Shown here one piece after another: positions 8,856-63,610 of a DNA stretch of 64,000 nucleotides. Position 1 is the stretch's first letter; the number at the start of each line of letters is the position of its first letter. Source of the DNA: Candidatus Omnitrophota bacterium (GTDB lineage Bacteria; Omnitrophota; Gorgyraeia; JAGLLT01); assembly GCA_023140385.1 (NCBI GenBank), contig JAGLLT010000017.1, positions 1,754 to 65,753 on the forward strand, given 5' to 3'. Below the pieces are notes generated by a model. That model was not told the DNA's origin and searched no databases. It saw only the letters and a list, made by a program, of their open reading frames with translations. Made by a program: the position numbers and the translations under genes.

Positions 8856-10277
8856 CTAAGCGAGAACGCACACCCTGTTCTTGCCCGACCTCTTTGCTTT
8901 ATATAATGCTTTATCCGCTTTATCAATAAACTTTCCCTTGCTCATCTTCTTTCCATATTCAGCCACGCCGGCGCTTACGGTTAGCCGGCCCTCTGTCTTA
9001 CTTTTTTTACCGGCAAAAGGATAACTTTCAACCGCCCGCCTTATCTTTTCAGCCAAAACCTGCGCTCCCTTCGCGCTGGTCTCCGGCAGGATAATCATAA
9101 ACTCCTCTCCTCCGTAGCGGGCGCCTATATCAACCTTTCTATTAGAAGCTCTAATAATGTCAGCCAGGTCTCTTAATGCCTTATCTCCCGGGAGATGGCC
9201 GTAGGTATCATTGTACTCCTTGAACGAGTCCACATCAAACATTATTAAAGAAAGGTTCCCGGCATAACGCTCGACGCGGTCTACCTCCTGGCTTAAGCGT
9301 TCATGAAAATAGCGGTGATTAAAAAGGCCTGTTACGCTGTCCGTAATGGCCAGGCAGGTTGCCTTTTCATACAATTTGGCATTTTCAATAGCAACCGCCG
9401 CCTGATGTATAATAACAGAAAGCACCTTCAGGTCATCCTCGGTAAATATATCAATATCGGAAGAGGTTTTATCGGTAATATTAAACACTCCTGTTACTTT
9501 ATCTTTCGTCTGCAGCGGCAGGCTCAGGAAAGATTTGGTTTTGTATCTGGATAAATTTTTACTCCTCAGATGGCTGTTCTTTTCAATGTTCTCCACCAGC
9601 AGCGGCTTTCCCTGCTGAGCCACCATTCCGGAAATGGTATTGTCCGCCGCGACCCTTCTTTCCTTACTAGCGGCTTTACTCAAACCCTTAGCCGCCTTAA
9701 TCACCAAATCCCCTGTCTTTTCATCAACCAGCAGCAAAGAAGCCTTTTCCGCGGGAATAAATTCAACAATCTTGTGAACAATAAAATTGACTAAATCATC
9801 TAAATTTAAAATAGCGCTCATACTTTTACCGATGATCAGGATCTGTTCCAGCTTATCCTTTTCTATTTTGAGCTTTTTCAGCAGCCACTTATTCTCCATT
9901 ACCAGATTCTGCTTTTCTAATCCACGGCGGATAACAGATTTAATCTGTTCCACTTTGTACGGCTTAATAATGTAATCATAGGCTTCTGCTTCTATGGCCT
10001 CAACGGTTGTCCTGACTGAGGGGTAAGCGGTTATAATAATACCGCAAATGTCAGGCGTAATCCGCTTTAACTGCTGTAAAACTTCCAGGCCGTCCATGTC
10101 CGGTAAATTCAAATCTAAAATAGCTATATTAAAAAAATTCAGCCTTGCCTTATCTACAGCCTGATAGCCCAATTCAAAAGCGGAAACATCATAACCCTCA
10201 TCCTCCAGGATAAGTTTAAGCATCTCTCTGGCAACTTTTTCATCTTCCACTAATAAAATTTTAATCTTTTCTTTCAT
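8856..10277 (-). CDS. Response regulator with REC, GAF and GGDEF (diguanylate cyclase) domains
   Basis: The REC domain (ILLVEDE…DLNLPDMDG), a GAF-like middle and GGDEF with intact RYGGEEF are all present. The start was chosen at ATG 10277 with GAGGAG SD; the longer ORF start at 10310 is TTG. Confidence 0.8.
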   Translation of the reverse strand: MKEKIKILLVEDEKVAREMLKLILEDEGYDVSAFELGYQAVDKARLNFFNIAILDLNLPDMDGLEVLQQLKRITPDICGIIITAYPSVRTTVEAIEAEAYDYIIKPYKVEQIKSVIRRGLEKQNLVMENKWLLKKLKIEKDKLEQILIIGKSMSAILNLDDLVNFIVHKIVEFIPAEKASLLLVDEKTGDLVIKAAKGLSKAASKERRVAADNTISGMVAQQGKPLLVENIEKNSHLRSKNLSRYKTKSFLSLPLQTKDKVTGVFNITDKTSSDIDIFTEDDLKVLSVIIHQAAVAIENAKLYEKATCLAITDSVTGLFNHRYFHERLSQEVDRVERYAGNLSLIMFDVDSFKEYNDTYGHLPGDKALRDLADIIRASNRKVDIGARYGGEEFMIILPETSAKGAQVLAEKIRRAVESYPFAGKKSKTEGRLTVSAGVAEYGKKMSKGKFIDKADKALYKAKRSGKNRVCVLA

Positions 10278-10288
10278 ATCTTCACTCC

Positions 10289-10753
10289 TCAATGGATTGT
10301 CTTGTCGCAAACTTTCTTAATGAGCTCAATAGTTTTATCCACATCAAAAGGCTTAAAGATACAGGTAGCGGCTCCCGCTTCTAAAGCCGTATTAATCATA
10401 TCTTCAACAGAATAGGCGGTCATCATTATGCAAACCGTCTGGGGACTCATAGCCTTTATCATTCTAAGAGTATCCACGCCATTTACTTCACCCAAAATTA
10501 TATCAATAAAAGCAACATGAAAAAATTCTTTGCCCGTTTTCTCTACAGCCTGCCGCCCGCTTTCCGCGGTTTCAACCTTATAATCACAGTCTTTTAATAT
10601 GGCGGCAAAAGTCTCCCTGGTAGTAAGTTCATCCTCAATAATTAAAATTTTGATTGGTTTTAATGGACACTTATCTTTCTCCCCCTTAGCATTCGCTGGA
10701 GACACTGTTTTCTTTTTGATAATCTTTGAGCGAAAAAAAATGTTTTGTATCAT
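10289..10753 (-). CDS. Single-domain response regulator (REC)
   Basis: ILIIEDELTTRETFAAILKDCDYKVETAESGRQAVEK…DIILGEVNGVDTL…MMTAY is a CheY-like receiver. Confidence 0.7.
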   Translation of the reverse strand: MIQNIFFRSKIIKKKTVSPANAKGEKDKCPLKPIKILIIEDELTTRETFAAILKDCDYKVETAESGRQAVEKTGKEFFHVAFIDIILGEVNGVDTLRMIKAMSPQTVCIMMTAYSVEDMINTALEAGAATCIFKPFDVDKTIELIKKVCDKTIH

Positions 10754-10766
10754 AACGCCTATAACC

Positions 10767-46157: not shown

Positions 46158-46630
46158 TGCTTCCTTTTCATATCAAGTTTAATCACTGCCTTCTTTATCC
46201 GGCTTAAACTTAACTCTTTTCTCTCGCCGGCTATATCCAGCAGAATATTATCACCTTCAATTTCTACGATTTTGCCGCATGTCTCTTCAATTGTCGTGCC
46301 GCAAGCCGCATAGGTTACCTCAACAACCTCACCTCTTACCCTCTCAAAGTCCCTTTTTGTAACCAGCGGCCTGTCAAGGCCGGGAGACGCGGCCTCCAGG
46401 ACAAAGCGGCCGGGGACTATCTCGCTCTCTTCTAAGACTTCTCCCATCCGCCTGTTAAATTCAGCGCACTCCTCAAGGGTTATTCCGCCAGGCTTATCAA
46501 GCAAAAAAAGGACAACCAGGCCTTTTTGTTTGCGGGAGCCCAACTCTATCTCAACCAGCTCTAAACCCCTTGCCTTCAATAAGCCGGAGGCGGCATTCTT
46601 TAACTTTTCCTTAAGCTCTTCTTTGTTCAT
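46154..46630 (-). CDS. rimP: Ribosome maturation factor RimP
   Basis: The start was chosen at ATG 46630 (MNKEELKEKLKNAASGLLKARGLELVEIEL…), the typical RimP N-terminus. The longer ORF to 46723 adds a non-conserved leader. Confidence 0.7.
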   Translation of the reverse strand: MNKEELKEKLKNAASGLLKARGLELVEIELGSRKQKGLVVLFLLDKPGGITLEECAEFNRRMGEVLEESEIVPGRFVLEAASPGLDRPLVTKRDFERVRGEVVEVTYAACGTTIEETCGKIVEIEGDNILLDIAGERKELSLSRIKKAVIKLDMKRKQ

Positions 46631-46757
46631 TTTTTCATTCAATAAAAAAAGTGGGGTAAACCCACTTCCATTAAAAACATTAAACTTGTTTAAAATTATA
46701 CTAAAAGGCCGTCTTGTTGTCAAGGATTTTTTGGCGCCGTAAACGTAAAAATACGCA

Positions 46758-46800
46758 AATAATAAGCGGCTACCTTTTATAAAGATAACCGCTTATTTCA
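46758..46800 (-). terminator. Putative rho-independent terminator downstream of the OMP gene
   Basis: On the minus strand aataagcgg-(20 nt)-ccgcttatt is followed by atttgcgtattttt. Confidence 0.35.
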
Positions 46801-46834
46801 TAACTTTTATATGTCTTTTAAGCTTAACTCCCCA

Positions 46835-47440
46835 TCAAAAACGGCACTTAAGCCCGCCGCCAAGCATCCACATATCACCATCTAGATCAACTTGAGCATG
46901 CGTACCAAAAGCATCTACGTGGCCGGTTGTATCGCTCCACATAAAACTACCTTCTAAATTTAGAGCTACATTCTCTGTAAAGTAGTAGTCGAGGCCAGCG
47001 CCCAGTTTAAGGGCAAACTCACTATCCATATCAACTGAAATACCGGCATTTGTTAAAGCTGAGCTCTCATCATAGTCCCAGAAACAAACACCCAGCCCCA
47101 AAATGCCGTAAGGAACTACCGCGCATTCATCCAATTCAATCGGATTCTTAACAATTAGAGTCGCTAAAAGAGGCACTACGCTAACATCTCCGTAATCCAC
47201 CCCGTCATACTCCTCATTCCAACCGGCATAACCGCATTCACCGCCTATAGCAATGTATCGGGTCAGGTCATAAGCAATGTTTCCTCCGACATAGCAGGTA
47301 CTGTCAGCGGCACTTTCTTCAGGGTCAACATAAGAAACATTCACTCCCAGCGTCCACTTTTGCGCCTCATCATAAGCAAAAGCAAGACTGCTGGTCATTA
47401 TAAAAGCAACTAACAAAATTAAGCATACAAACTTTTTCAT
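46835..47440 (-). CDS. Outer-membrane beta-barrel protein (OmpW/OmpA-beta-barrel-like)
   Basis: Signal peptide, alternating amphipathic strands, and a C-terminal …GGGLKCRF aromatic. Confidence 0.6.
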   Translation of the reverse strand: MKKFVCLILLVAFIMTSSLAFAYDEAQKWTLGVNVSYVDPEESAADSTCYVGGNIAYDLTRYIAIGGECGYAGWNEEYDGVDYGDVSVVPLLATLIVKNPIELDECAVVPYGILGLGVCFWDYDESSALTNAGISVDMDSEFALKLGAGLDYYFTENVALNLEGSFMWSDTTGHVDAFGTHAQVDLDGDMWMLGGGLKCRF

Positions 47441-47625
47441 CTTTAACTCCTTATTTCATGTTTAATACTTTTCACTATCCGTTAACTTATTATCTCCCCA
47501 CATCACCTCTCTTTCTTTTTCTTAGTAATTAAGAAAGCGTTACAGTTAAGTTGTTATATAAATATTTGAAAAAGTGATTGTATCATACAAAGAGACAAAT
47601 ATCAAGCACGTTTTTTTAGCTCTTA

Positions 47626-48843
47626 TTAACTTATCAATTCAGCTATATTAAATACCGGTAAGTAAAGAGCTATCACAATCCCTCCGATAATAACTCCTAA
47701 AACAACAATTATTACCGGTTCAATCAGAGAGGTTAAGCCATCTACGATAGCCGTAACTTCAGCATCATAAAAATCAGAAACCTTGAGCAGCATCTCTTCA
47801 AGGGAACCTGTTTGCTCACCGACAGCTACCATTTTAACGACCAGAGGTGGAAATATGCCGCTGCTTGCCAGAGGTTGGGCTATGCTCTCGCCCCCCCTAA
47901 CATTTTCCAGAACCTTGAAAACTACTTTTTCAATTACTTTATTGCCGCTTGTTTTGGCAACAATATCCAGGGAGGTCAAAATAGAAACGCCGCTTTTTGT
48001 CAGAGTGCTTAATGTCCTTGAAAATCTGGAAATGGAAACCTTCCTTATTAGTTTACCAGCTATAGGGAGCCTTAAGAGCATCCCATCAATGAAAAGCCCG
48101 CCGGGTTCTGTCTTGGAAAACATAAAAATCCCCGCGATTACAGCCGCGATTCCAAGTACAAACGCGAGAAGCCATTTAGTCACCAAATTGCTTAACAACA
48201 ACAAAAACTGTGTCGGCCCGGGCAAGTTCGCGCCAAAGCCGGAGTATATTTCCGCGAAAGACGGAACCACCTGAACCAGCATAAATACCGTAATACCCGC
48301 CGCCGTAAGCGTAATAACAACAGGATATACTAAGGCAGCCTTAACCTTCTTCTGCAGTTTACTTGTCTCTTCCAGATAAGAAGCCATACGTTGTAAAATA
48401 TCATCCAGCATACCTGAGGCCTCACCGGCTGAAATCATGTTAACGAAAAGCGTTGAGAAGGCTCTGGGATACCTGGATAGAGCTTCCGATAGGCTGCTGC
48501 CGCCCTCAACTGCTTCTTTCACTTTACTAATCAAAGATTTAAACGGCCTTTTTTCTGACTGTTCAACAAGTATCTCAAGGCCCTGAATTAAAGGAAGGCC
48601 GGCACTTACCATAGTAGCCAACTGCCTCGAAAAAACAGCCAGGTCATCCGTTTTTATTTTGATTGAGGAAGATGGCGGGTTAAAGCTGAAAGCAAAGGGG
48701 GATTTTTTATTTTTACTTATGGAAAGGATGAAGCACTTTCTCTCTTTTAAGATATTTACAGCAGCTTCCTCGGTGGGAGCGCTCAAGATACTGGTTGACA
48801 CCGTTCCATTTTTCTTTTTAATGGTGTATTTAAATTCGGGCAT
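47626..48843 (-). CDS. pilC: Type II secretion / type IV pilus platform protein (GspF/PilC family)
   Basis: Two T2SSF repeats and 3 TM segments over 405 aa. Last gene of the operon. Confidence 0.85.
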   Translation of the reverse strand: MPEFKYTIKKKNGTVSTSILSAPTEEAAVNILKERKCFILSISKNKKSPFAFSFNPPSSSIKIKTDDLAVFSRQLATMVSAGLPLIQGLEILVEQSEKRPFKSLISKVKEAVEGGSSLSEALSRYPRAFSTLFVNMISAGEASGMLDDILQRMASYLEETSKLQKKVKAALVYPVVITLTAAGITVFMLVQVVPSFAEIYSGFGANLPGPTQFLLLLSNLVTKWLLAFVLGIAAVIAGIFMFSKTEPGGLFIDGMLLRLPIAGKLIRKVSISRFSRTLSTLTKSGVSILTSLDIVAKTSGNKVIEKVVFKVLENVRGGESIAQPLASSGIFPPLVVKMVAVGEQTGSLEEMLLKVSDFYDAEVTAIVDGLTSLIEPVIIVVLGVIIGGIVIALYLPVFNIAELIS

Positions 48844-48851
48844 AGGTTATT

Positions 48852-50546
48852 TTACTCCGAAGTTATCCTCAAGACCTCTTCTATTGTCGTCTGCCCCGCG
48901 AGAAACTTTTTAACGGCGTTCTCCCACAGCGTCTTCATACCTTTTGAAACAGCATATTCCTTAATCCTATCGCTTGACTCTTTAGCCAGAATCATATTTT
49001 TAATCTCTTCATCAATCTCCATAACCTCAATCGTCCCCATTCTTCCCATATAACCTGTGTTATTGCACTGCTTACATCCTTGAGCCTGATAGCCGGTAAT
49101 TTCTTCCTTCACGTTAATGCCTAATTTTTTTAGAACTTCCATAGGCACCCTATATTCACGGCGACAAGCGGAACAAACCCTTCTGCAAAGCCTTTGAGCA
49201 ACAACTAAAATAAGACTTGAAGCAATCAAAAAGGGCTCTATGCCCATATCAACCAGCCGCGTTATGGCGCCGGCAGCATCATTTGTATGAAGCGTACTGA
49301 AAATCAATAAGCCTGTAAGTGACGACTTAATGGCAATATCAGCCGTCTCCGAATCTCTAATCTCACCAACCATAATTACGTCTGGACTTTGTCTTAATAT
49401 TGATCTGAGCCCTCCGGCGAAAGTCAAACCTATTTCCGGTTTAACCTGAACCTGAGTTATCCCCTCAAGCTGATACTCTACAGGATCTTCGATAGTCATT
49501 AAACTCACCTTAGGCTTGTTAAGCTGATTTAAGATTGAATAGAGGGTCGTTGATTTACCTGAGCCGGTGGGCCCTGTAACCAAAATCATACCATAGGGCT
49601 TAAGGACAGCTCTCTTAAAGGCTTCAAGAGGCTCTGACAAAAAACCAAGCTTTTCCAGGCCGACACTCAAATTGGACTTATCAAGAGCTCTCATAACAAT
49701 TTTTTCACCATGAGCTATGGGCAGGCAGGAAACCCTAAAGTCGATTTCTTTGTCTTTAAATTTTACCTTAAACCTCCCATCCTGCGGCAGTCTTCTTTCG
49801 GTAATATCCAGATTGGACATTATTTTCAGGCGGGCAATAAGGGCATTCTGATACTTTTTCGGTATTTCAAAGGCCTCCTGAAGCTCCCCGTCAACACGGT
49901 AACGGATACGCAAAATATTTAGATAAGGCTCTAAGTGTATATCACTGGCCCTTTGCTTCAAGCCTTCGTCTATAATACGGCCAACCATCCTGATAACCGG
50001 AACCTTCTCATCAACCTGCATCATCTGAACCTCACCCTTTACATGCTCCAACTCCGATTCCTGTCCAGACCCCGCCTCATTTAGCATATCCATCACTCCG
50101 GCGTTAACACCTCCATAGGCTATCCTAATTGCCTTTTTAACCTCATCCGGAGTGCTGATAATTGGTTTAATTGTCATACTGGTTAAACTTTTAATATCAT
50201 CAAGGGCGAATATATTTAAAGGATCGGCCATAGCAATGGTCAGGGTATTGCCAATTTTTGAAAGAGGTATTACAAGATAATGACTGGCAATCTGTTCGGG
50301 AATAATCTTTAAAACTTCAAAGTCAATCTTATATTTGGAGAGCTTTATAATAGGTAGATTCAGTTGGCTCGCCAGACAGCTCATCAATTGCTCTTCACTG
50401 ACCGCCCCCTGCTTAACAAGAATCTTGCTTAGCAAACCTCCTTCATTCTTCTGAATTTGAATTGCCTTATCCAGAGCGTCCTTTGAAATGAACTGGCTAT
50501 CAAGTAACGTTTTTTTAATTTTTTCTTCAAGGCTAATTTTAGCCAT
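48852..50546 (-). CDS. pilB: MshE/PilB-family assembly ATPase with an N-terminal MshEN (c-di-GMP-binding) domain
   Basis: The two MshEN motifs are LLDSQFISKDALDKAIQIQ and LSKILVKQGAVSEEQLMSCLASQ. Walker A is LVTGPTGSGKSTTLYS and the tetracysteine is CSAC…CKQC. Confidence 0.85.
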   Translation of the reverse strand: MAKISLEEKIKKTLLDSQFISKDALDKAIQIQKNEGGLLSKILVKQGAVSEEQLMSCLASQLNLPIIKLSKYKIDFEVLKIIPEQIASHYLVIPLSKIGNTLTIAMADPLNIFALDDIKSLTSMTIKPIISTPDEVKKAIRIAYGGVNAGVMDMLNEAGSGQESELEHVKGEVQMMQVDEKVPVIRMVGRIIDEGLKQRASDIHLEPYLNILRIRYRVDGELQEAFEIPKKYQNALIARLKIMSNLDITERRLPQDGRFKVKFKDKEIDFRVSCLPIAHGEKIVMRALDKSNLSVGLEKLGFLSEPLEAFKRAVLKPYGMILVTGPTGSGKSTTLYSILNQLNKPKVSLMTIEDPVEYQLEGITQVQVKPEIGLTFAGGLRSILRQSPDVIMVGEIRDSETADIAIKSSLTGLLIFSTLHTNDAAGAITRLVDMGIEPFLIASSLILVVAQRLCRRVCSACRREYRVPMEVLKKLGINVKEEITGYQAQGCKQCNNTGYMGRMGTIEVMEIDEEIKNMILAKESSDRIKEYAVSKGMKTLWENAVKKFLAGQTTIEEVLRITSE

Positions 50547-50576: not shown

Positions 50577-52298
50577 CTAAACTACTGTAACCCTTAATAT
50601 TTCCTCTAAGGCGGTAATTCCCTTGGCGGCTTTTATTAAGCCGTTTTCTCTAATGGTATTCATGCCCTCAGAGCCCGCCTGCTTTAATAAGCTGGCTTCT
50701 GATTCCCTCTTAATAATTATATCTTTGATCGCGCTTGACAAAAGAATGGCCTCGCTAATTACCACTCTTCCCTTGTAGCCCGTATTCTGACAGCTGGGAC
50801 AACCTTTTCCTTTATAAAAACTTTTTATCTCGGCGTTAATTTTCTTTTCAATTTTATCCAACCCAAGATTCTTCCTCAAATTATTATTTATTTCATAGGC
50901 CTCTTTGCAATTAGAACAAACTCTTCTAACTAATCTTTGAGCTATAAAAAGAAGACAGGATGAGGTAATTAAAAAAGGTTCTACGCCCATATCGACCATT
51001 CTGATTACAGAACCCGCGGCCGAGGTTGTGTGCAGGGTACTCAAAACAAGGTGTCCGGTTAAAGCGGCTTTGATAGCCACGTCAACGGTCTCAAAGTCCC
51101 TGATCTCGCCTACCATAATTATATCCGGATCCTGCCTTAATATTGACCTTAAGGCGGAAGCGAAGGTCAAGCCGGCCTTCGGCAGGCATGTTACTTGATT
51201 TACCCCCTCTAATTCATATTCAACCGGATCTTCTACAGTAACTATATTTTTGGCCGGGGAATTAACAAGCTGTAAAACTGAGTAAAGTGAGGTGGTTTTG
51301 CCGCAGCCGGTAGGCCCGCAGACCAAGATCATGCCGTGGGGGCGCCTGGCACTTTCCTTTAATCTTTCTAATACCTGCTCCTCAAAGCCAAGTTTATTAA
51401 TATCTAAAGTTGACGACGACTTATCCAAAACTCTCAGGGCAATCTTTTCTCCAAAGCTTGAAGGTAAAACAGACACCCGATAATCAACCTCTCTTTTCAG
51501 CACCCGGACTTTAAACCTTCCGTCTTGGGGAAGACGATGCTCGGCTATATTGAGATTTGACATTACCTTTATGCGAGAAATAATAGCGCTATGAAGAGCC
51601 TTGGGGACCGTCGGACTTTCCTGCAGGATTCCGTCCACTCTATACCTTACCGTTGTTTTCTTTTCCTGCGGCTCAATTAAAACATCGCTTGCCGCGCGCC
51701 TAACAGCTTCGGTAAGTATCAGGTTGGTTAATCTAATAACCGGCTTCTCGCCCATCATCTTCAGCAAGGTATCAGCATCCTGAACCTTGCCGTCTGAGCT
51801 CGCCTTAACGTCCTTCAAAAGGCTTTCATCGCCCTCCCTCAGGAGACTTTCAAGCTTCCCGCCCTGGCCGTAATACCTATCAAGGGCACTAAGGATTTCC
51901 TCTTCACTACTTATAATGGGATGAATAACAAATCTGGTTAAAGCCTTTAAATCATCAATGGCAAAAATATTTAAAGGATCGGACATAGCAATAGTTAAAG
52001 TATTGCTTATTTTTGAAACTGCTATTAAGACATACCGCCTGGCCAGCTCTTCCGGAATTAATTTAACAATCTCCTTGTCTATCCTGAGCTTGTCGAGAGA
52101 AATGAGTGGAATGCCCGAACTCTCACTTAAAGCCGCCATCAGGTCATCGTTTTTAACAAACTTTAAGGAAATCAATATATCTCTCAACTTCCCCTGTTTT
52201 TGTTTTTGTATCTTGAGTGCTTCCTCAAGCTGCTGGCGGGTAAGCAGTTTATTCTCTAATAAAATCTTAATAACTTCTTCTTTTAAGTTTTTCGCCAT
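50577..52298 (-). CDS. Second MshE/PilB-family ATPase with an N-terminal MshEN domain
   Basis: The two MshEN motifs are LLENKLLTRQQLEEALKIQ and LRDILISLKFVKNDDLMAALSES. Walker A is LVCGPTGCGKTTSLYS and the tetracysteine is CSNC…CPSC. Confidence 0.85.
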   Translation of the reverse strand: MAKNLKEEVIKILLENKLLTRQQLEEALKIQKQKQGKLRDILISLKFVKNDDLMAALSESSGIPLISLDKLRIDKEIVKLIPEELARRYVLIAVSKISNTLTIAMSDPLNIFAIDDLKALTRFVIHPIISSEEEILSALDRYYGQGGKLESLLREGDESLLKDVKASSDGKVQDADTLLKMMGEKPVIRLTNLILTEAVRRAASDVLIEPQEKKTTVRYRVDGILQESPTVPKALHSAIISRIKVMSNLNIAEHRLPQDGRFKVRVLKREVDYRVSVLPSSFGEKIALRVLDKSSSTLDINKLGFEEQVLERLKESARRPHGMILVCGPTGCGKTTSLYSVLQLVNSPAKNIVTVEDPVEYELEGVNQVTCLPKAGLTFASALRSILRQDPDIIMVGEIRDFETVDVAIKAALTGHLVLSTLHTTSAAGSVIRMVDMGVEPFLITSSCLLFIAQRLVRRVCSNCKEAYEINNNLRKNLGLDKIEKKINAEIKSFYKGKGCPSCQNTGYKGRVVISEAILLSSAIKDIIIKRESEASLLKQAGSEGMNTIRENGLIKAAKGITALEEILRVTVV

Positions 52299-52307
52299 CT
52301 ATAGATT

Positions 52308-52832
52308 TTACTCCTCGGGGGCGGTGCCGCCCTGACTGTTTTCTTCATCCACTTGTCGCGGAGCATTGCTAAAGTTAAGTTTAGCAATGTCCTCTTCCCG
52401 CGAAACGATACTTCCGTACAAGCGGTTTATAGCGTCCTTTATATCACTTGCCGTACTGACAAAGGCCGTAACCTTACAGTTCGTTATATACTCAAGGTCT
52501 TTTATGGCAAAATCATTTAGCGGATCTGACATAACTACAGTCAAAACATTCCCAATTTTGTCAATGGGAATAAGAAAATATTGCCTGGCAACGTTCTCCG
52601 GCACAAGCTTTATTGCCTCAATATTAATGTCATAATTACTCAAAGGCAGATAAGGAAAACCGTACTGATCAGCCAGGGACATAACCAAATTCTCTTCACT
52701 AATAAAATTCAGCTCAATTAAAATCTGCCCTAAAAGGCCGCCCTTTTCTTTTTGAGACTTCAGGGCTTCATCTAACTGAACCTGCGTAATTATCTTTTTC
52801 TCAATGAGAAGCTGTCCCAGCTGTTTTTTCAT
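52308..52832 (-). CDS. Stand-alone MshEN (T2SSE_N) domain protein, putative c-di-GMP receptor
   Basis: 174 aa. The two motifs are LGQLLIEKKIITQVQLDEALKSQ and LGQILIELNFISEENLVMSLADQ. There is no ATPase domain. Confidence 0.7.
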   Translation of the reverse strand: MKKQLGQLLIEKKIITQVQLDEALKSQKEKGGLLGQILIELNFISEENLVMSLADQYGFPYLPLSNYDINIEAIKLVPENVARQYFLIPIDKIGNVLTVVMSDPLNDFAIKDLEYITNCKVTAFVSTASDIKDAINRLYGSIVSREEDIAKLNFSNAPRQVDEENSQGGTAPEE

Positions 52833-52853
52833 CTCTGCGTCCTTTTCAAATGG

Positions 52854-55800
52854 TTATTCTTTTAACTTTCTCTTGACGCTTTCTATCGCTTTACTAACCT
52901 TTCTTCTTACTTCATCATTACTGTATTGAGAATAAAGTTTCAGGGTTTCAAGGCAGCCCCTGTCTCCTATAAGCCCCATAACCTCTATAATATTCATAAT
53001 AACTTCTACATCTCTGGTGGCCGATAATTCACGCCTTAACTCTTCAAGGGACTTACTTCCGAATTTTGCGAGAATTTCAGCTATGTATCGCCTGTTTAAA
53101 TAAGCATCATAGGGATCAATCCTTTTGTTAGGTTTAGATAAAAGATTGACAAAATAATCTACCGTCCCTTCGCCCGCTTCATCAATCAGCGAAGCAATGG
53201 CTTCAGCGTCTGTTCTTCTTACCTTTACCTTAAACACTCCGGCAAGAGCCTTTACGTTTTCCTTTTTAGCAATCTGAGCCAAAACTTTGCTTAAAACATT
53301 CTTCCGCTCTTCGCCGATTTTCTCACCGGGCGCAGTAATTTCCTTAATAAACCGGGTTATGGAAACAGCCAAATCAAATTCCTTCTTATTAATAAAGATG
53401 CCGATAAGCCTGTCTAAAACGAGACTTTCCGAGGTAAAAACTGAAAGATCCTTTTCACCGCCTATCACATCCACAAGACACCTGCTTATAAAACGCAGGC
53501 AATCTATAGCATCATTGGAGCTTAAAATATCTACTATGCTCTGAAGATTAGCCGCTACATATAGACGAACCTGACAATTTTCAGACTCAAAATTTTTAAA
53601 TATTTTACTCAGGGCTTCATTAACTACCTCTTCTTTGTTGTCCAAAAGCAGTTCATAGAAGACCTCCTTCACGCTTTCTAAAAGTTCCTGATCCAAGAAG
53701 GACTCCGCGGACAAAGACTTTATTTTAATAAGCTTATCAGAATAAGAGAGGTTGCGCCATAAATCAGGTTTTAAAAAACTAAGAAACTGCTCATTGGAAA
53801 TGCCGCAAGCGGAAAAACTCTGACTCATTGATTCAAGAATACCAACCCTTCTTTTCTTATCCGGCAAGAACCTTTTTATGTAATCTTTTATGTCGGTAAA
53901 ATTAACTTTACCCTGCTTATATCTCTCACATTCCTGCGCGAAAAAAGTTTCTATTTTGCTATCAGGAAGTTCGCTAAAGGCTTTAGCCATTTCATCGGAG
54001 GTAATTCCCACATTTTTAAGATTTTTCTGTTTTAAAATCTGAGAGCGCAGCTCAGGCTGTAGATTAAGTACAAACTGTAGAAGGTTTTCCTTATACCGCT
54101 TTTGTTTTTCAGAATTTTCCTTTAAAACCTCACTTTTCATCTTTTTTAAACTTTGCTTTACGATATCAGCTTTTTCGTTTATGTTCATGTTCTGAAAATC
54201 AAAATCACTCTCAGCGGCACCAGGGCCTTCCGGGCCTTTAGAAAAAATCCCGGCTAAATAATCCGGGTTCCGGCCTAAAACATCAAGCATAGAACTTCTT
54301 GAATCAGTTGAAGCTTCCGGTCTACTAAGCATATAATTTATTAGCATTACTTCATTAATCTTGCTTCTTTTTTCCTGCGGCCGGCCAAGCTTCTTTCTTA
54401 ATATCTTCTCGTAATGAACCATGATAAGCTTAATGCCCGCTACGTTATTTTGCTTAAGTATAGCCTGCAGGCCGCCCAAATCATCTATCTCTGACGTTTT
54501 TTTTGAAAGAGCCGTGAGAAAAACGTCAAGCTCTCCTTCTTTCACGTCTTTCTCAAAGAAAAAAGACTGTATTCTATACTTTTTTAATAAAGAAGCGAGG
54601 CTGCCGATTACTGCGCTTCTAACATCCTTAGCCCTCAGCTCTCCCCCATTTACTAGAAGATAACCCTCAACATCAGAAAAAGAAATCACCTCATATCCCT
54701 TAAAAAGCTCTCCTAAATAATTATATAACTCCCTCACCGAATCAACCCTGACCTTGCTCCCCTTGGGATATAATCCATAATTTACAATCCCGGCCCTTAA
54801 AGAAACAATAACCTTAATGATAAGCCTATAGTCATCTTTTTTAAGCGGCTCTACAGCAAGAGGCAACTCCTCCTCCTCTTCTTCTTTTAGGCCGGCCAAC
54901 TCTCTTGATAAGACTTCCTGCAAATACTGGTTAGCTTCATCCGAATTAAAACTTCTTAAGGCTTCATCTTGGGCAATCTTTTCATAATCGGATGCCTTTT
55001 TCGCGTCTTTGGCCTTTTTAAAATGATAGGCAAGAAGGTTAGCCGCGGCCTGCGGATTGCTACTGCTTGACGCCTCCGCGATCTGAGCGAATTTTTCATG
55101 AAGTTTATTGCGCTCATTTTCCTGAACTTCGTCATAAAGCAGCTCCCAGAGCAGTTTATTTCTAAAACTAAATATCTCCTGCCCCCCTGTTTCGCGGGAA
55201 TCAATAAACATCTTCTGCCTGGACCGCTCTATCATCTCGCCGATGTAGCCGGGACTTTTACCAGTCATCTTTTCCAGAGCTTCAAGGCTGAACTCTTGCC
55301 CCAAAACAGCCGCGTTAGACAAAAAATACTTGGTCTCTTCATCCATATGCTTAAGCTTATCCTGTATAATTTCCTTGATACCTAAAGATATATCATCGTC
55401 TTTGATTTCCTTTTTACGCCATTTTTCGTCTTTAAAGTAAATTGAACCGTTTTCGATAAGTTTTCTCAAGGACTCTTCTATAAAATACGGATTACCTTCT
55501 GTTCTTGAGTAAAATAACTGATTTAACTTGTCATCAAATTCCAAGTCGCCAAAAATAGAGTTAATCATCTTTTTGGTTTCCTCGGAGCTAAGCGGCTTAA
55601 GTTCTACGCAAAGACTTTTTTGATTTCGCTGTAACTGTTCATATAACTGCCGTAGTATTATATTCTCATCAAACCTTCTTATTAATTCCGAGTAGCGAAA
55701 AGCGCATACAATACAGATTTTTTCATTTACCTCATTGCTTAACAAATAATTAATAAGAGAAATCGTGGCCAAGTCGACCCACTGAAAATTGTCAAAAGTT

Positions 55801-56864
55801 ATAAATAAAGGCTTTTGCTGAGATAACTTTATCATCAGTTCCGCCAACGCCTTAAAAAGATGGGATCTGAAGTTTTTTTCGTCAAGTTTTACCTTTTCAA
55901 TCCGGCGGCTTGAAAACTTTTGAAGGGCCGGCTCCAACTCAATCAGGCAAGAAAGCTCTATCTCAGACAAGCTGTCAATTATCCGCTTGGCTCCATCCCC
56001 AAGCGACTTCATAACCCCCTCAAGGTTGGCCGATAAGACCTGATATGGTTGGGAAGATATGACTTCAGTGCAGCGGGCCGCTAATGAAAGACTTTCTTTT
56101 GACAGAGCATAACTCGCGGCTTCTAATTGAAGCTTGCTTTTTCCCAAGCCTGCTTCAGCCTGTATAAGAACCGTCCTGGCTGTATTATTCCCAAAACTAT
56201 CGTCTATTACCTCTTTAATTCTCTTTAAGTTCTTTTCTTTTCCGATAATCTCAAAAGACAAAAGTTCAAATACTTTATCTTTATTCAATATATCTTCGGG
56301 TACTTGCGTAAATATGGAAACTCTGTTTCTACCGGTTCTTTTAGATAAATATAAGGCTTCATCCGCGCGATAAATAAGTTTTTCGGCGACTTGCGCGTCA
56401 CGCGGATACAAGGCAAGGCCCAGACTTAAGGTTAAGTTTATATCGCGCTGGCCGCCTTCTCCCGCAAAAACATACTGTGAAATCCTGCCTATCAGCCTCC
56501 CGGAGATCTTTAACGCGTCGCCTTCAGCCGTCATAGGCAGTATCACAATAAATTCATCACCGGCATATCTTATTATCTCATCATACTCACGAAAACTCTC
56601 CCTCAGTAAATCAGCCACCTCCATCAACACCTTATCTCCTCTCAGATGCCCATAGGTATCATTAATCTCTTTAAACTTATCTATATCTATCATAAATAGC
56701 GATAAAGGGTACTGTTCTCTGTCGGCCTTTTCTATATTTTCTCCAAGGCATTTATTTAGATAACGCCTGTTATGAAGATTAGTCAGATCATCCCGATAGA
56801 TTAGTTCCTGTACTGCCTCTTTGTCCTCTATATAAAGTTGTTTTTTCCTTCGATCTCTCTGCAT
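52854..56864 (-). CDS. 1336-aa multidomain protein: N-terminal GGDEF (AGDEF variant), AAA+/STAND-like NTPase, a long middle region and C-terminal HEAT repeats
   Basis: The GGDEF domain has DLTNLHNRRYL…RYAGDEF. Walker A is TVLIQAEAGLGKSKL, with a Walker B-like FITFDNFQWVD. The C-terminus has HEAT/PBS-lyase-like repeats (…NDEVRRKVSKAIESV). Confidence 0.7.
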   Translation of the reverse strand: MQRDRRKKQLYIEDKEAVQELIYRDDLTNLHNRRYLNKCLGENIEKADREQYPLSLFMIDIDKFKEINDTYGHLRGDKVLMEVADLLRESFREYDEIIRYAGDEFIVILPMTAEGDALKISGRLIGRISQYVFAGEGGQRDINLTLSLGLALYPRDAQVAEKLIYRADEALYLSKRTGRNRVSIFTQVPEDILNKDKVFELLSFEIIGKEKNLKRIKEVIDDSFGNNTARTVLIQAEAGLGKSKLQLEAASYALSKESLSLAARCTEVISSQPYQVLSANLEGVMKSLGDGAKRIIDSLSEIELSCLIELEPALQKFSSRRIEKVKLDEKNFRSHLFKALAELMIKLSQQKPLFITFDNFQWVDLATISLINYLLSNEVNEKICIVCAFRYSELIRRFDENIILRQLYEQLQRNQKSLCVELKPLSSEETKKMINSIFGDLEFDDKLNQLFYSRTEGNPYFIEESLRKLIENGSIYFKDEKWRKKEIKDDDISLGIKEIIQDKLKHMDEETKYFLSNAAVLGQEFSLEALEKMTGKSPGYIGEMIERSRQKMFIDSRETGGQEIFSFRNKLLWELLYDEVQENERNKLHEKFAQIAEASSSSNPQAAANLLAYHFKKAKDAKKASDYEKIAQDEALRSFNSDEANQYLQEVLSRELAGLKEEEEEELPLAVEPLKKDDYRLIIKVIVSLRAGIVNYGLYPKGSKVRVDSVRELYNYLGELFKGYEVISFSDVEGYLLVNGGELRAKDVRSAVIGSLASLLKKYRIQSFFFEKDVKEGELDVFLTALSKKTSEIDDLGGLQAILKQNNVAGIKLIMVHYEKILRKKLGRPQEKRSKINEVMLINYMLSRPEASTDSRSSMLDVLGRNPDYLAGIFSKGPEGPGAAESDFDFQNMNINEKADIVKQSLKKMKSEVLKENSEKQKRYKENLLQFVLNLQPELRSQILKQKNLKNVGITSDEMAKAFSELPDSKIETFFAQECERYKQGKVNFTDIKDYIKRFLPDKKRRVGILESMSQSFSACGISNEQFLSFLKPDLWRNLSYSDKLIKIKSLSAESFLDQELLESVKEVFYELLLDNKEEVVNEALSKIFKNFESENCQVRLYVAANLQSIVDILSSNDAIDCLRFISRCLVDVIGGEKDLSVFTSESLVLDRLIGIFINKKEFDLAVSITRFIKEITAPGEKIGEERKNVLSKVLAQIAKKENVKALAGVFKVKVRRTDAEAIASLIDEAGEGTVDYFVNLLSKPNKRIDPYDAYLNRRYIAEILAKFGSKSLEELRRELSATRDVEVIMNIIEVMGLIGDRGCLETLKLYSQYSNDEVRRKVSKAIESVKRKLKE

Positions 56865-56879
56865 AACGCTTAGACACCT

Positions 56880-57953
56880 CTAAAGATCCTTTAACATCCT
56901 CTTTAAATCTTCTACTTCGTTTGTTCTTGATAAGGCAGATTCATAATCAATTCTTCCCAACTGACAAAGCTCTTTTAGGCTGTGATTCATCGCTTTCATC
57001 CCATCCTTCTGTGAAGTCTGTATTACGGAATATATCTGATGAATCTTTTGTTCCCTTATTAAACTCCTGACGGCAGGAGTTAAAACCAACAGTTCAAACG
57101 CCAAAACTCTACCGGAACCGCTGGCCCTAGGTATCAACTGCTGTGATATAACGGCGTTTAACACAAAAGAAAGCTGTACCCTTACCTGTTCCTGCTGGTG
57201 CTGAGGAAAAACGTCAATTATCCTGTTAATCGTTTGAGCGGAGTCCGAAGTATGAAGTGTTGCCAAAACCAGATGCCCTGTCTCGGCGGCGTTTAGAGCC
57301 AACTCTATGCTCACTAAATCTCTCATCTCACCGATTAATATAACATCTGGATCCTGACGGAGGACATGCTTGAGAGCCTGAGAAAAAGAATGGGTGTCGC
57401 GGCCTACTTCACGCTGATCAATAACCGCTTTTTTATTCGAGTATAAATACTCTATCGGATCCTCTATAGTTACAATATGAACCGGGCGATCATTATTAAT
57501 AAACTCTACCATGGCGGCTAAGGTGGTTGATTTTCCGCTTCCCGTCGCGCCGGTTATTAGCACCAGCCCTTTATTCTTCACGCACAATTCAGTCATAGTG
57601 TTGACCGGCAGGCCGCACCCCTCAAAAGACATAATTTTGGCCGGCAAGGCCCTGATAGCAACCCCGATTTTTCCTTTTTGATAAAACACATTGGCTCTAA
57701 AACGCGCTATCTTTTCTATGCCAAAGGACATGTCCAGCTCGAGATCCCTTTCAAGAGCCTTTTTTTGATCTTCGCTAAGAATACCGCTTAGCAGATTTTG
57801 TATCTCCTCACTGCTGAGACTCTCGTAATCACAGGGAATTAGCTTCTCGTCAACTCTAAAATGCGGAACAGAGTCAGATGATAAATGCAGGTCAGACGCC
57901 TTTTTCTCTACCATCAACAATAAAGCTTCCTTAAGAACAGTTAACCTGGTCAA
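56880..57953 (-). CDS. pilT: Type IV pilus retraction ATPase PilT
   Basis: ASDLHL N-terminus. Walker A is LITGATGSGKSTTLAAM, with AIRHVLRQDPDVILIGEMRD. The TTG start at 57953 has an AAGGAGGTG SD; the alternative ATG is at 57914. Confidence 0.85.
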   Translation of the reverse strand: MTRLTVLKEALLLMVEKKASDLHLSSDSVPHFRVDEKLIPCDYESLSSEEIQNLLSGILSEDQKKALERDLELDMSFGIEKIARFRANVFYQKGKIGVAIRALPAKIMSFEGCGLPVNTMTELCVKNKGLVLITGATGSGKSTTLAAMVEFINNDRPVHIVTIEDPIEYLYSNKKAVIDQREVGRDTHSFSQALKHVLRQDPDVILIGEMRDLVSIELALNAAETGHLVLATLHTSDSAQTINRIIDVFPQHQQEQVRVQLSFVLNAVISQQLIPRASGSGRVLAFELLVLTPAVRSLIREQKIHQIYSVIQTSQKDGMKAMNHSLKELCQLGRIDYESALSRTNEVEDLKRMLKDL

Positions 57954-58002: not shown

Positions 58003-59424
58003 TCAAGTATATACTTTATTGGCGTCTTGAGACCGCGCCCGATCCAACAGCTTCCGGGCCTTGATGACTAACTCCTCAGAGCTCATCCCGTCCAATGGAT
58101 TAGCCGTTACCGCCGCGCTTACGGTTATATTTTTCTCGGGCATTGACTCCTGATTTGCAAAGTCAAAATTCTCAATTTTCTCTCTGATTTTATCAGCTGT
58201 CATATGAGCTTCTTTTTTATTCTTCTCAGGAAGAATCAAAGCAAAAGCACACTGTTCAAACCTGCCCACCTTATCTATCCGCTCAACGTTTGCCTTTATG
58301 ATAGAGGCTATTTTTTTCAATATCTCATCCGAAACCTGCTTGCCAAATCTGTCCTGGCAAGCGTCAAAATTATCGACTTCCACTAAGATAAAAGAACACG
58401 GCCGCTGATATGTAATAGCTCTTTGAATCTCCTCATTTAAACGTTCTCTTAGATATTTTATATTATATAGCCCCGTCAACTCATCTCTTACTGAAAGCTC
58501 TTTGGTTTTATTCATAAGCAAGTTATTTTCTATAGCAATAGAAATCTGCTTACTAAAGACCTTCATCAGCTCCAGGTCATCACTCGCGAAACTAAAATCA
58601 TTTTTATTGTTACCGAGAATCATATCGCACTTAACCTCACCGTGAAGTACAACAGGAAAAACAATTATGTTATTTAAATTCAGGCTTTTTTTTAAGCTCT
58701 TTGTTGCACCATCAACTCTGTGCTTCTTATCCAAAACTAAGCTTTCCCGCTGCTTTGAAAGCCTGGCAAGAACACCTTCGGAAAAATCTTTTTCAAGGGC
58801 TTCCATTTCTTCGGGTTTAAGATTATTAGTAGCCTTTATCTTTACCCCGGCGCCTTCCGCCTCAAAAATTACCAAAAAGCTTTTCTCGCAGTCAACAACA
58901 TCAGGAAGTCTTTCGATTACAGTCTGCAATATTACGCTAAGATCTCCGGCGCCGGACATAATGCTGCTAACCTGAAAAAGAGTCGATAGGGCTGTCATTT
59001 TTTTATTGATGTCCAGATTAATGCTTCTTATCTGCTCCTCATAGCCCTTTAAAGTATCTACATTTTTATTTATTTTTGAAGCCATTGAGTTAATAGAAAT
59101 ACTTAAATCACCGATTTCATCCTCTCTGTTAGTCGGAATTTGCCCAAGATCATTGCCGTCTGTATAAAGTTTGAGTTTTTTAGAAATCTGAATAACAGGA
59201 TCAACGATGCTTTTAGCCACAAACAGGCCCAAAAGCGCTATAATGGTTGTTATTAAAACCAACAGGCTGGTGTCACCGATAATTATATCCTGCTCATACA
59301 CGTATTTATTTATAAGAACTCCACAGAGTAAAAGGGGCATAATTGACATAAGGCTAAAAGCTAAGATTAATTTATACTTCAGGCCCTTTGGCATTAAAGA
59401 TACCGCTTTAAATAACTTATACAT
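58003..59424 (-). CDS. Membrane signalling protein: 2 TM, HAMP, GAF and a degenerate GGDEF domain
   Basis: The GGDEF fold is RDELTGLYNIKYL…, but its signature is GRFEQCAF instead of GG(D/E)EF. Confidence 0.65.
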   Translation of the reverse strand: MYKLFKAVSLMPKGLKYKLILAFSLMSIMPLLLCGVLINKYVYEQDIIIGDTSLLVLITTIIALLGLFVAKSIVDPVIQISKKLKLYTDGNDLGQIPTNREDEIGDLSISINSMASKINKNVDTLKGYEEQIRSINLDINKKMTALSTLFQVSSIMSGAGDLSVILQTVIERLPDVVDCEKSFLVIFEAEGAGVKIKATNNLKPEEMEALEKDFSEGVLARLSKQRESLVLDKKHRVDGATKSLKKSLNLNNIIVFPVVLHGEVKCDMILGNNKNDFSFASDDLELMKVFSKQISIAIENNLLMNKTKELSVRDELTGLYNIKYLRERLNEEIQRAITYQRPCSFILVEVDNFDACQDRFGKQVSDEILKKIASIIKANVERIDKVGRFEQCAFALILPEKNKKEAHMTADKIREKIENFDFANQESMPEKNITVSAAVTANPLDGMSSEELVIKARKLLDRARSQDANKVYT

Positions 59425-63599: not shown

Positions 63600-63610
63600 T
63601 TACTTAATCC

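Follow-up and report, generated by a model that had tools for sequence, protein, structure and literature searches.

We report a genuine, strongly conserved small gene of the Omnitrophota type IV pilus operon, found on the minus strand of a 64,000-nucleotide stretch of Omnitrophota DNA (the window, by which we mean the whole stretch analysed). Its 174-aa product is a detached MshEN (GSPII) module, and on balance we lean toward the reading that it is a trans-acting subunit through which the type IVa pilus extension motor of Omnitrophota senses c-di-GMP. This reading draws on the fold of the protein, the conservation of its motifs, the degeneracy of the matching domains in two neighboring ATPases, the linkage of these genes in an operon, and the existence of a naturally fused form, all of which were observed.

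The small gene and its operon

The genes and signals on which the argument draws are as follows:
52308..52832, minus strand: stand-alone MshEN gene, 174 aa plus stop codon (open reading frame list, Pfam and NCBIfam matches, homologues, and conserved synteny)
52840..52844, minus strand: Shine-Dalgarno-like AAGGA, 7 nt 5' of the MshEN-gene ATG, read from the sequence
50577..52298, minus strand: PilB-a, extension-type ATPase, 573 aa (PF05157 and PF00437; TIGR02538, 646 bits)
48852..50546, minus strand: PilB-b, second extension-type ATPase, 564 aa, 48% identical to PilB-a (profiles and pairwise alignment)
47626..48843, minus strand: PilC platform protein, 405 aa (PF00482 T2SSF, two repeats)
52854..56864, minus strand: giant GGDEF (AGDEF plus RxxD I-site)-AAA_16-HEAT protein, 1336 aa (Pfam; motif REYDEIIRYAGDEF)
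56880..57953, minus strand: PilT retraction-type ATPase, 357 aa (TIGR01420, 464 bits)
58003..59424, minus strand: HAMP-GAF-GGDEF membrane protein at the head of the cluster (Pfam; GGDEF signature degenerate here, EQCAF)
8856..10310: REC-GAF-GGEEF protein with I-site, also encoded in the window

The small gene starts with ATG and is separated by 21 nt from the stop of the 1336-aa GGDEF gene and by 9 nt from the ATG of the first ATPase gene, PilB-a, whose Shine-Dalgarno-like GAGGAG is formed by the last codons of the small gene (GAG GAG), within its stop region. An earlier, sequence-only reading of this DNA had placed the gene between the ATPases and the giant GGDEF protein, a position borne out by the open reading frame list and the domain matches. 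Neither pilin nor PilMNOPQ genes were found in the window, and no N-methylation motif was present.

The gene order around it is fixed: HAMP-GAF-GGDEF, (PilT), stand-alone MshEN, PilB-a, PilB-b, PilC. Among 80 species-level Omnitrophota loci, every one of sufficient length carries a small gene of 145-197 aa at the same operon position, immediately 5' of PilB-a and mostly with gaps of -23 to +20 nt, and in all 80 the stand-alone MshEN and PilB-a are separate genes. PilC comes after PilB-b in related loci of sufficient length, and the HAMP-GAF-GGDEF gene is the upstream neighbor in nearly all loci. The giant GGDEF gene occurs in loci L001 and L010 and in part in L008, and is absent from L004 and most other loci; in most genomes, which lack it, the MshEN gene directly follows PilT or the HAMP-GAF-GGDEF gene.

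Relatives of the small gene are encoded in at least 533 species genomes, and the best 80 species genomes with a relative all belong to the Omnitrophota; 2618 homologues were found, and the 120 among them that were listed are 145-221 aa long. Across 57 species, the stand-alone domain shows a mean identity of 64%, compared with 62-65% for the ATPase cores and 50% and 47% for the ATPases' own N-domains of the same species, and the four-helix subdomain alone shows 63%, compared with 46% and 38% for the ATPase copies. In conservation the stand-alone copy thus equals the ATPase catalytic cores and surpasses the ATPases' N-domains, a comparison inflated in its favor by the choice of the 80 loci by similarity to the stand-alone protein itself. 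The sequence-only reading's premise that MshEN normally forms an ATPase's N-terminus proved too simple: many MshEN architectures have been published (PMC5013675, Supplementary Table 4), and 42 of the 150 best cluster representatives from a family-profile search are no longer than 230 aa. A limited literature search found no earlier account of a free-standing MshEN protein encoded in a pil operon or by Omnitrophota.

As for the ligand, the organism has the means to make c-di-GMP, in the window's REC-GAF-GGEEF protein with its I-site and in the AGDEF giant. The giant protein is a possible local source in the window's clade; it was rejected as a general partner because it is confined to that clade. 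The signature of the HAMP-GAF-GGDEF neighbor differs greatly across its 66 orthologues: of the 33 that were listed, one has the canonical GGDEF and one SGDEF. This protein was rejected as a dedicated local cyclase because its signature is degenerate or variable in most species. These loci therefore do not, as a general feature, have a dedicated c-di-GMP source of their own.

Fold and ligand-contact positions

Within the small gene, the following parts can be told apart:
52752..52823, minus strand: c-di-GMP motif 1, residues 4-27 QLGQLLIEKKIITQVQLDEALKSQ (aligns with MshE 9-32)
52665..52736, minus strand: c-di-GMP motif 2, residues 33-56 LLGQILIELNFISEENLVMSLADQ (aligns with MshE 38-61 and PilF 196-218)
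52410..52664, minus strand: MshEN_C / T2SSE_N1 alpha-beta subdomain, residues 57-141 (PF05157; three strands plus helices in the AF2 model, block-mean pLDDT above 90)
52311..52409, minus strand: low-confidence charged tail, residues 142-174, with the conserved short motif AKLNFSNAPRQ (AF2 pLDDT and family comparison)

Both MshEN profiles matched well above what chance would give and above their cutoffs, Pfam PF05157 at residues 57-141 (E = 2.7e-20, 72.6 bits against a cutoff of 23.1) and NCBIfam NF053729 "c-di-GMP_motif" at residues 4-56 (63.8 bits against 38), so that the absence of a profile match, which the sequence-only reading had named as grounds for abandoning its assignment, was not observed. 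The Pfam search found no other domain in the 174-aa protein, with no Walker A, T2SSE, or PF00437 match and no PilZ family at E ≤ 0.01, and only positions 2-152 of the TIGR02538 model were covered. The protein is accordingly a complete MshEN/GSPII domain followed by a low-confidence tail, as had been proposed. NF053729 also scored above its cutoff in both ATPases (44.8 and 46.1 bits); the profile itself therefore does not separate binders from non-binders, and the call rests on individual positions.

The AF2 model of the protein has a mean pLDDT of 85.8, with 10-residue block means of 84-97 up to residue 140, and contains helices at residues 5-11, 17-30, 34-40, and 46-57, then three strands with flanking helices. 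Its top Foldseek match in the PDB was 5HTL, the MshE N-domain with c-di-GMP (TM 0.81 on the target, rmsd 2.6 Å, 36% identity), and the next-best matches were the PilF GSPII-B c-di-GMP complexes. From about residue 141 the block means fall to 60 or less, and to below 50 at residues 162-171. The acidic disordered tail of the sequence-only reading thus holds for this protein, as a charged low-confidence segment, but tails of at least 20 aa occur in only about 15 of 189 family members, a clade-restricted minority that has in common (V/I)(S/A)K(F/Y/L/V)(N/D)FxN(A/V)(P/A)R. Being confined to a few clades, the tail was rejected as a general feature or partner element.

In the alignment to 5HTL, query residues 1-112 correspond to MshE 6-117, equal spans that we read as ungapped, and on this reading the motif positions correspond residue for residue, giving two 24-residue motifs (4-27 and 33-56) and a 5-residue spacer (28-32). 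In motif 1, Q4, L5, G6, K13, L20, L24, and Q27 align with R9, L10, G11, G18, L25, L29, and Q32 of MshE; in motif 2, L33, L34, G35, N42, L49, L53, and Q56 align with R38, L39, G40, G47, L54, L58, and Q61. D103 aligns with MshE D108 and PilF D266, the position of a residue contacting guanine. The claim that both repeats are intact therefore holds for the Leu, Gly, and Gln contact positions, that is, the Leu triads (L5/L49/L53 and L20/L24/L34), the glycines at the third position of each motif (G6 and G35), and the terminal Q27 and Q56, but not for the first residues (Q4 and L33 rather than Arg) or the turn glycines, in whose place this orthologue has K13 and N42. L33 lies within the extended R/K/L consensus for the first residue, and Q4 lies outside it (PMC11731258). 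Most of the family has Q or T at the latter position, and one residue before it K3 is invariant; it is a speculation that K3 might substitute for R/K/L at the start of motif 1.

Among 82 genome-derived stand-alone orthologues, G6, G35, and Q56 are each kept in 82, Q27 in 81, and L33 in 79, and the six Leu-triad positions are hydrophobic throughout, with conserved or conservatively substituted residues in the family; 114 database members show like conservation of the Gly, Gln, and Leu-triad contact positions. Across the stand-alone family, G6, L20, and Q27 vary little or not at all, and L33, G35, and Q56 are invariant in A1. The ligand-contact residues of the stand-alone family are, judged by this conservation, under strong selection.

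Changing both PilF Q190 and Q218, the equivalents of Gln27 and Gln56, to Glu abolished c-di-GMP binding (PMC11731258), and Gln27 and Gln56 are ligand contacts, not core residues. Neither MshE G11L nor MshE G40I binds c-di-GMP, nor does XpsE, which has G11V/G40L (PMC5013675); replacing Gly by Ala is enough to lower affinity 10- to 30-fold, and an engineered GSPII-A with Ser as the first residue of motif 2 lost binding (PMC12002112). Even a perfect consensus is insufficient, as the motif-restored PilF GSPII-A still failed to bind owing to its N-cap and tight subdomain packing (PMC12002112).

The two PilB ATPases and the proposed role of the free module

PilB-a has a complete MshEN N-domain of its own, 43% identical to the stand-alone protein over 140 aa without gaps, and the N-domain of PilB-b is 36% identical to it. 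In the window, PilB-a has I, R, and S at the equivalents of G6, G35, and Q56, and PilB-b has K at the G6 equivalent and a degenerate first motif. The same holds at the family level: the first-motif Gly is found in none of 69 PilB-a and none of 60 PilB-b sequences, the second-motif Gly in 15 of 69 and 15 of 60, and the second Gln in 0 of 69 and 17 of 60 (with Glu instead in 33 of 60), and the stand-alone copy keeps the first-motif Gly and second Gln in 81-82 of 82 genomes. The ATPase-borne MshEN copies are thus predicted to be ligand-dead, and because both neighboring ATPases have lost the binding residues, sensing is probably supplied in trans.

A natural fusion bears on the identity of the partner. 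The 765-aa protein P0132, encoded on the metagenomic contig L087, joins a stand-alone-like MshEN (42% identity) through a linker to a PilB-a-like ATPase (50% identity over its full length), and is followed by PilB-b and then PilC, matching the window's order; PilB-a was the only fusion partner found. Fused (MshEN)2-4-T2SSE architectures have also been published (PMC5013675, Supplementary Table 4). An apparent 1170-aa PilB-a/PilB-b fusion in L076 was discarded because it arose from a masked run of N in the scaffold.

The idea, already raised from the sequence, that the free copy is a c-di-GMP-dependent adaptor for the two ATPases is thereby partly supported: the contact residues are near-invariant in the stand-alone family and degenerate in both ATPases, the conservation of the stand-alone copy equals that of the ATPase cores and exceeds that of their N-domains, and nature has fused it to a PilB-a-like ATPase in the same gene order. 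From this we infer that the protein binds c-di-GMP, what its partner is, and in which direction it acts. The N-terminal four-helix bundle would bind one c-di-GMP through both Leu triads, the G6 and G35 backbone amides, and the side chains of Gln27 and Gln56, with L33 stacking on one guanine as L196 of PilF GSPII-B does. The ligand would reorient the bundle relative to the C-terminal N1D-like subdomain, which would dock on PilB-a or on the PilM/PilC platform normally engaged by PilB N-domains, making pilus extension c-di-GMP dependent even though both PilB paralogues are without binding residues of their own. By analogy with MshE, PilF GSPII-B, and Myxococcus xanthus PilB, we favor high c-di-GMP activating extension.

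The free N1D-like domain could instead be a decoy or competitor that occupies the PilB N-domain docking site on PilM/PilN/PilC or on the ATPase ring, blocking extension or deciding which PilB paralogue is engaged, with c-di-GMP releasing or enforcing the block. We consider this rather unlikely, although the protein is closely paralogous to the N-domains that the ATPases themselves carry, the GSPII/N1 domains of GspE and XpsE bind GspL, the PilM homologue, PilF GSPII-C is needed for stimulation by PilMN (PMC6325625), and the conservation and synteny fit this reading and the adaptor equally well. The fusion on L087 puts the module in cis on PilB-a, which better fits an accessory motor domain than an antagonist, and the known effects of MshEN and c-di-GMP on pili are positive. 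It is also unlikely that the free MshEN, by its ligand state, selects PilB-a or PilB-b (or a hetero-hexamer) for the pilus platform.

A structural subunit that has lost c-di-GMP binding and only provides the two-ATPase motor with one more N1D-type scaffold or assembly factor seems to us quite unlikely. The Q or T at the start of motif 1 is not among the validated residues (R/K/L), GSPII domains that resemble the consensus can fail to bind, and both turn glycines are missing in this orthologue, but a pure scaffold would need no invariant Gln27/Gln56 and Gly6/Gly35, positions that drift freely in PilB-a and PilB-b, and it is in the four-helix subdomain that conservation most exceeds that of the ATPases' copies.

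It is very unlikely, too, that the module is a c-di-GMP adaptor for another neighbor, for example in the recruitment or feedback regulation of PilT, the HAMP-GAF-(degenerate)GGDEF sensor, or the giant GGDEF-STAND-HEAT protein. The HAMP-GAF-GGDEF gene is as constant a neighbor as PilB-a, PilT often lies directly upstream, and FrgA of M. xanthus joins MshEN to HEAT repeats, with which the giant protein ends; many loci, however, have neither PilT nor the giant gene in between, PilB-a is always close downstream, and the sole fusion found is to PilB-a.

That the gene is what remains, as a fragment or pseudogene, of a third, disrupted ATPase gene (the sequence-only reading had allowed for a 5' fragment) is extremely improbable, as it has its own start, Shine-Dalgarno-like site, and stop, is kept in at least 533 species genomes with invariant residues, and is followed by a complete PilB with its own full MshEN and no ATPase remnant; synteny, conservation, and this downstream PilB refute a recent disruption. 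The tail aligns loosely with the PilB-b N1D-N2D linker, which suggests a possible ancient origin by truncation of a PilB paralogue, one compatible with a trans-acting sensor.

Known MshEN systems and implications for Omnitrophota

The protein shares with Vibrio cholerae MshE (5HTL) the two-subdomain fold, the 24-residue motifs with their 5-residue spacer, the Leu triads, both Gly and both Gln, and the Asp108 equivalent; MshE differs in carrying the domain as the N-terminus of a T2SSE ATPase rather than as a separate polypeptide, and in having Arg9, Arg38, G18, and G47 where Q4, L33, K13, and N42 are found here. GSPII-B of Thermus thermophilus PilF (8PDK), a high-affinity domain, is likewise an extra MshEN module upstream of the ATPase-proximal one, has Q190/Q218 and D266 at the positions of Q27/Q56 and D103, and binds c-di-GMP without any Arg, its L196 corresponding to L33; it is required for twitching and adhesion. 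Its first motif starts with Lys, unlike the Gln here, and PilF carries three modules in cis on one ATPase, whereas here one separate module accompanies two ATPase paralogues. In fused (MshEN)2-T2SSE ATPases such as Cthe_1107 (PMC5013675, Supplementary Table 4) and P0132 the parts are covalently joined, although the L087 locus that encodes P0132 has the same parts list and order as the window.

PA3740 of Pseudomonas aeruginosa, compared here by its description only, is also a small MshEN-type protein without an ATPase and a c-di-GMP receptor tied to surface motility: it consists of MshEN and a divergent T2SSE_N1, binds c-di-GMP, and affects swarming, but, as listed in PMC5013675, its C-subdomain has diverged strongly, and neither a pil-operon context nor a link to PilB is mentioned there. 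Outsourced c-di-GMP sensing has a precedent, by functional analogy, in the PilZ-FimX pair of Xanthomonas and Pseudomonas and in FimW of P. aeruginosa, which follow the same logic of trans-acting c-di-GMP regulation of PilB-driven extension, with PilZ docking on the PilB N-domain (7LKM). Their folds are unrelated (PilZ, and a degenerate EAL in FimX) and there is no homology; FimW was rejected as a homologous stand-alone MshEN protein because the literature describes it as PilZ-type.

It is not yet clear how GSPII/MshEN domains couple c-di-GMP to extension, in part owing to the domain's flexibility and its poor resolution on the ATPase (PMC11656802). A separate sensor beside predicted ligand-dead ATPase copies would make binding, docking, and motor activation separable for study, and it yields a testable prediction with named residues (G6, G35, Q27, and Q56). 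A role in host attachment has been ascribed to the type IVa pilus cluster of Omnitrophota, and a phylum-wide survey of their pili mentions neither PilB nor c-di-GMP (PMC10066038); the present gene adds a conserved, previously undescribed component to that cluster. If our reading is true, Omnitrophota have moved c-di-GMP sensing out of both extension ATPases into one free subunit, and if that subunit were also to select between the PilB paralogues, it would be a second-messenger-controlled motor switch for host attachment by ultra-small predatory or parasitic cells.

A free MshEN gene in the pilus cluster

The ORF studied here lies in a run of reverse-strand genes (window coordinates):

58003-59424 (-), HAMP-GAF-GGDEF membrane protein, head of the cluster
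52854-56864 (-), giant GGDEF protein, 1336 aa
52308..52832 (-), stand-alone MshEN protein, 174 aa
48852-52298 (-), tandem PilB-type extension ATPases, PilB-a (50577..52298) and PilB-b (48852..50546)

It is separated by 21 nt from the stop of the giant GGDEF gene and by 9 nt from the ATG of the following PilB-type ATPase gene, and in our reading of the sequence AAGGA stands 7 nt upstream of its own ATG. Pfam PF05157 (MshEN) matched residues 57-141 (E=2.7e-20) and NCBIfam NF053729 ('c-di-GMP_motif') residues 4-56 (63.8 bits, cutoff 38); these were the only domain matches, and no ATPase domain was found. An AF2 model made with 114 family members as input had block-mean pLDDT values of 84-97 through residue 140 and of at most 60 from about residue 141, and its closest PDB match was 5HTL, the c-di-GMP-bound MshE N-domain (TM 0.81, rmsd 2.6 Å, 36% identity), with c-di-GMP complexes of PilF GSPII-B and the X. 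citri PilB N-domain next. PF05157, NF053729 and the match to 5HTL confirm the sequence-only reading of this ORF as an MshEN fold without an ATPase; by sequence and fold the protein is a member of the MshEN family, with c-di-GMP binding predicted. The tail (residues 142-174; 52311-52409, -) carries the motif (V/I)(S/A)K(F/Y/L/V)(N/D)FxN(A/V)(P/A)R and then a charged low-complexity stretch; the motif is common to the tailed members, about 15 of 189 in the family, and is a possible docking peptide. The tail can also be aligned, loosely, with the N1D-N2D linker of PilB-b.

The worry that the ORF is the 5' fragment of a disrupted ATPase gene was not borne out, as the next gene encodes a complete PilB and the gene is likewise short in relatives from many species genomes. 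The N-domain of PilB-a itself aligns with the ORF without gaps over 140 residues (43% identity). A database search with the stand-alone protein returned 2618 relatives, and the 120 listed were all 145-221 aa long and came, where a source was named, from Candidatus Omnitrophota or Omnitrophica. In a scan of one genome per species, at least 533 genomes encoded a relative; the best 80 were Omnitrophota throughout, some wrongly labelled 'Planctomycetia' by depositors' pipelines, and included the complete genome of Ca. Velamenicoccus archaeovorus LiM. The window therefore belongs to an Omnitrophota genome, whose nearest named relative is Ca. Kappaea frigidicola (71% identity for the stand-alone protein).

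Among species loci on long enough contigs the order was HAMP-GAF-GGDEF, (PilT), stand-alone MshEN, PilB-a, PilB-b, PilC, with a gap of -23 to +20 nt between the MshEN and PilB-a genes in most. In one species (L062, 8134-8562) a second stand-alone MshEN gene separates PilB-b from PilC. At window 44000-47626, an OMP beta-barrel gene comes after PilC and then, by eye, rimP-, nusA- and infB-like ORFs; relatives such as locus L001 have pilins and pilMNOPQ after PilC. The whole 64-kb window contained no pilin N-methylation motif. In L001 and L004, which differ in carriage of the giant GGDEF gene, the pilus cluster lies directly downstream of Pfam-annotated mreB-mreC-mreD-PBP2-rodA, which the window ORFs at 59539-63970 (-) resemble by eye; this linkage of cell-elongation and pilus genes is conserved. 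A third T2SSE-family ATPase (21444-23012, -; 522 aa; Walker A GPTGCGKT) shows no recognisable MshEN domain; its N-terminal part, some 135 aa long, is hydrophobic and rich in Cys instead.

Ligand positions in the three MshEN modules

Positions were mapped directly from the MshE alignment, which has equal spans, is apparently ungapped and is offset by +5. The sequence-only reading had called both 24-residue repeats intact. This holds for the Leu at position 2, the Gly at position 3, both Leu of LxxxL and the terminal Gln, all present in both motifs; it does not hold for the two Arg that start the MshE motifs, replaced by Q4 and L33, or for the two turn Gly, replaced by K13 and N42. The turn Gly is not universal in the family, since the first one is also missing from the Geobacter PilB N-domain deposited in the PDB (VRNNII). 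Motif 2 opens with Leu in PilF GSPII-B as well (L196), a 6-nM binder in which K167L tightens c-di-GMP binding and whose authors widened the consensus start to (R/K/L)LG (PMC11731258). Gln at the start of motif 1 falls outside this set, and an engineered GSPII-A with Ser at position 1 of motif 2 lost binding (PMC12002112). Position 4 is Q or T across the family, the Lys before it is near-invariant (invariant in the alignment of database members, 81/82 in the genome set), and D103 aligns with the guanine-contacting C-subdomain Asp of MshE (D108) and PilF (D266). Binding by the stand-alone protein is thus predicted as likely but not certain, because the contact residues are kept but motif 1 starts outside the R/K/L set.

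Ligand-contact residues in modules extracted from species loci (stand-alone numbering)
Position: stand-alone (n=82); PilB-a (n=69); PilB-b (n=60)
G6 (first-motif Gly): 82/82; 0/69 (T, S, V, I); 0/60
Q27: 81/82; 67/69; 50/60
G35 (second-motif Gly): 82/82; 15/69; 15/60
Q56 (second-motif Gln): 82/82; 0/69; 17/60 (Glu in 33)

Published non-binders include the MshE mutants G11L and G40I and XpsE, which has G11V and G40L (PMC5013675); changing Gly to Ala lowers affinity 10- to 30-fold (PMC12002112), and Q190E + Q218E abolishes binding by PilF GSPII-B (PMC11731258). Because their contact positions fail these mutational criteria, both ATPases are predicted to be non-binders or weak binders, and of the operon's three MshEN modules the stand-alone copy alone retains a predicted ligand site. 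Over one set of 57 species, in loci picked by similarity to the stand-alone protein and hence biased toward it, mean pairwise identity was 64% for the stand-alone domain, 62-65% for the ATPase cores, and 50% and 47% for the N-domains of PilB-a and PilB-b (four-helix subdomain: 63%, 46% and 38%).

The two ATPases are 48% identical and form a conserved adjacent pair across Omnitrophota loci L001-L086; by eye, those of the window retain the Walker A, Asp, Walker B and His box motifs and the Cys4 zinc site. Two extension motors for one pilus system could form a hetero-hexamer or serve as alternative motors. An apparent 1170-aa double PilB (L076, 10574-14086) is an artefact of a masked-base run joining two genes.

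Fused relatives and sources of c-di-GMP

Among 1.84 billion cluster representatives, a profile search picked out 35,235 MshEN-containing clusters (642 at E<=1e-30) of diverse architecture, with 42 of the 150 best at most 230 aa long. One representative, P0132 (765 aa), joins a stand-alone-like MshEN (42% identity) through a low-complexity linker to a PilB-a-like ATPase (50% identity over the full length), and PilB-b and PilC follow on its contig. A fused form with the gene order unchanged is an argument for the free module acting with PilB-a as an additional N-terminal domain; the module would then correspond, in unfused form, to published (MshEN)2-4-T2SSE ATPases like PilF. Another representative, P0165, combines a stand-alone-like MshEN (51% identity) with, by eye, a PilZ-like segment plus hydrophobic stretches, possibly membrane helices; it would hold two different c-di-GMP receptor domains in one protein.

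The giant GGDEF protein has AGDEF with an RxxD I-site, an AAA_16/STAND-like NTPase and C-terminal HEAT repeats; its gene sits between the PilT and MshEN genes in the window's clade only (L001, L010; partial copy in L008). In the HAMP-GAF-GGDEF protein EQCAF replaces GGDEF, and its 66 orthologues vary (GDDEF, SGDTF, GETEF and others), those listed including a single canonical GGDEF; conserved cyclase activity is unlikely, and the protein may serve as a receptor or scaffold. Judged from these sequences, a dedicated local c-di-GMP source is not a general trait of the pilus cluster. The organism can make c-di-GMP, since the window also encodes a REC-GAF-GGEEF protein (8856..10310) with canonical GGEEF and an I-site, which adjoins a GAF-HisKA-HATPase kinase (the two together at 8856-12722, -) and is likely a two-component-controlled diguanylate cyclase.

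A possible role in pilus extension

We propose that the stand-alone protein would bind c-di-GMP and that its N1D-like C-subdomain would dock on PilB-a, or on the PilM/PilC platform, rendering pilus extension c-di-GMP dependent; it is known that GSPII domains contact PilM homologues and mediate PilMN stimulation (PMC6325625). The fold, the conserved ligand site, the degenerate ATPase sites, the tight operon linkage and the fused form support this at the sequence level, and the logic is that of Pseudomonas and Xanthomonas, in which PilZ-FimX acts in trans for a PilB N-domain that does not itself bind the ligand. By analogy with MshE, M. xanthus PilB and PilF GSPII-B, the effect on extension is probably positive. 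The chief alternative is a decoy role, in which the protein and the PilB N-domains would compete for the platform; these data do not decide the sign of the effect between decoy and adaptor. PilT or the GGDEF neighbours as target are possible but less well supported, and a ligand-independent scaffold is less likely because it would not need the invariant Gln27/Gln56 and Gly6/Gly35.

The MshEN family itself is already known, and stand-alone or near-stand-alone members are on record (PA3740, PMC5013675; database architectures). In the literature searched we came across no account of a pilus operon with a conserved free MshEN gene, or of degenerate ATPase-borne copies beside one, and a survey of type IVa pili in Omnitrophota mentions neither PilB nor c-di-GMP (PMC10066038). 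The contrast between the stand-alone and ATPase-borne modules yields a clear, testable prediction.
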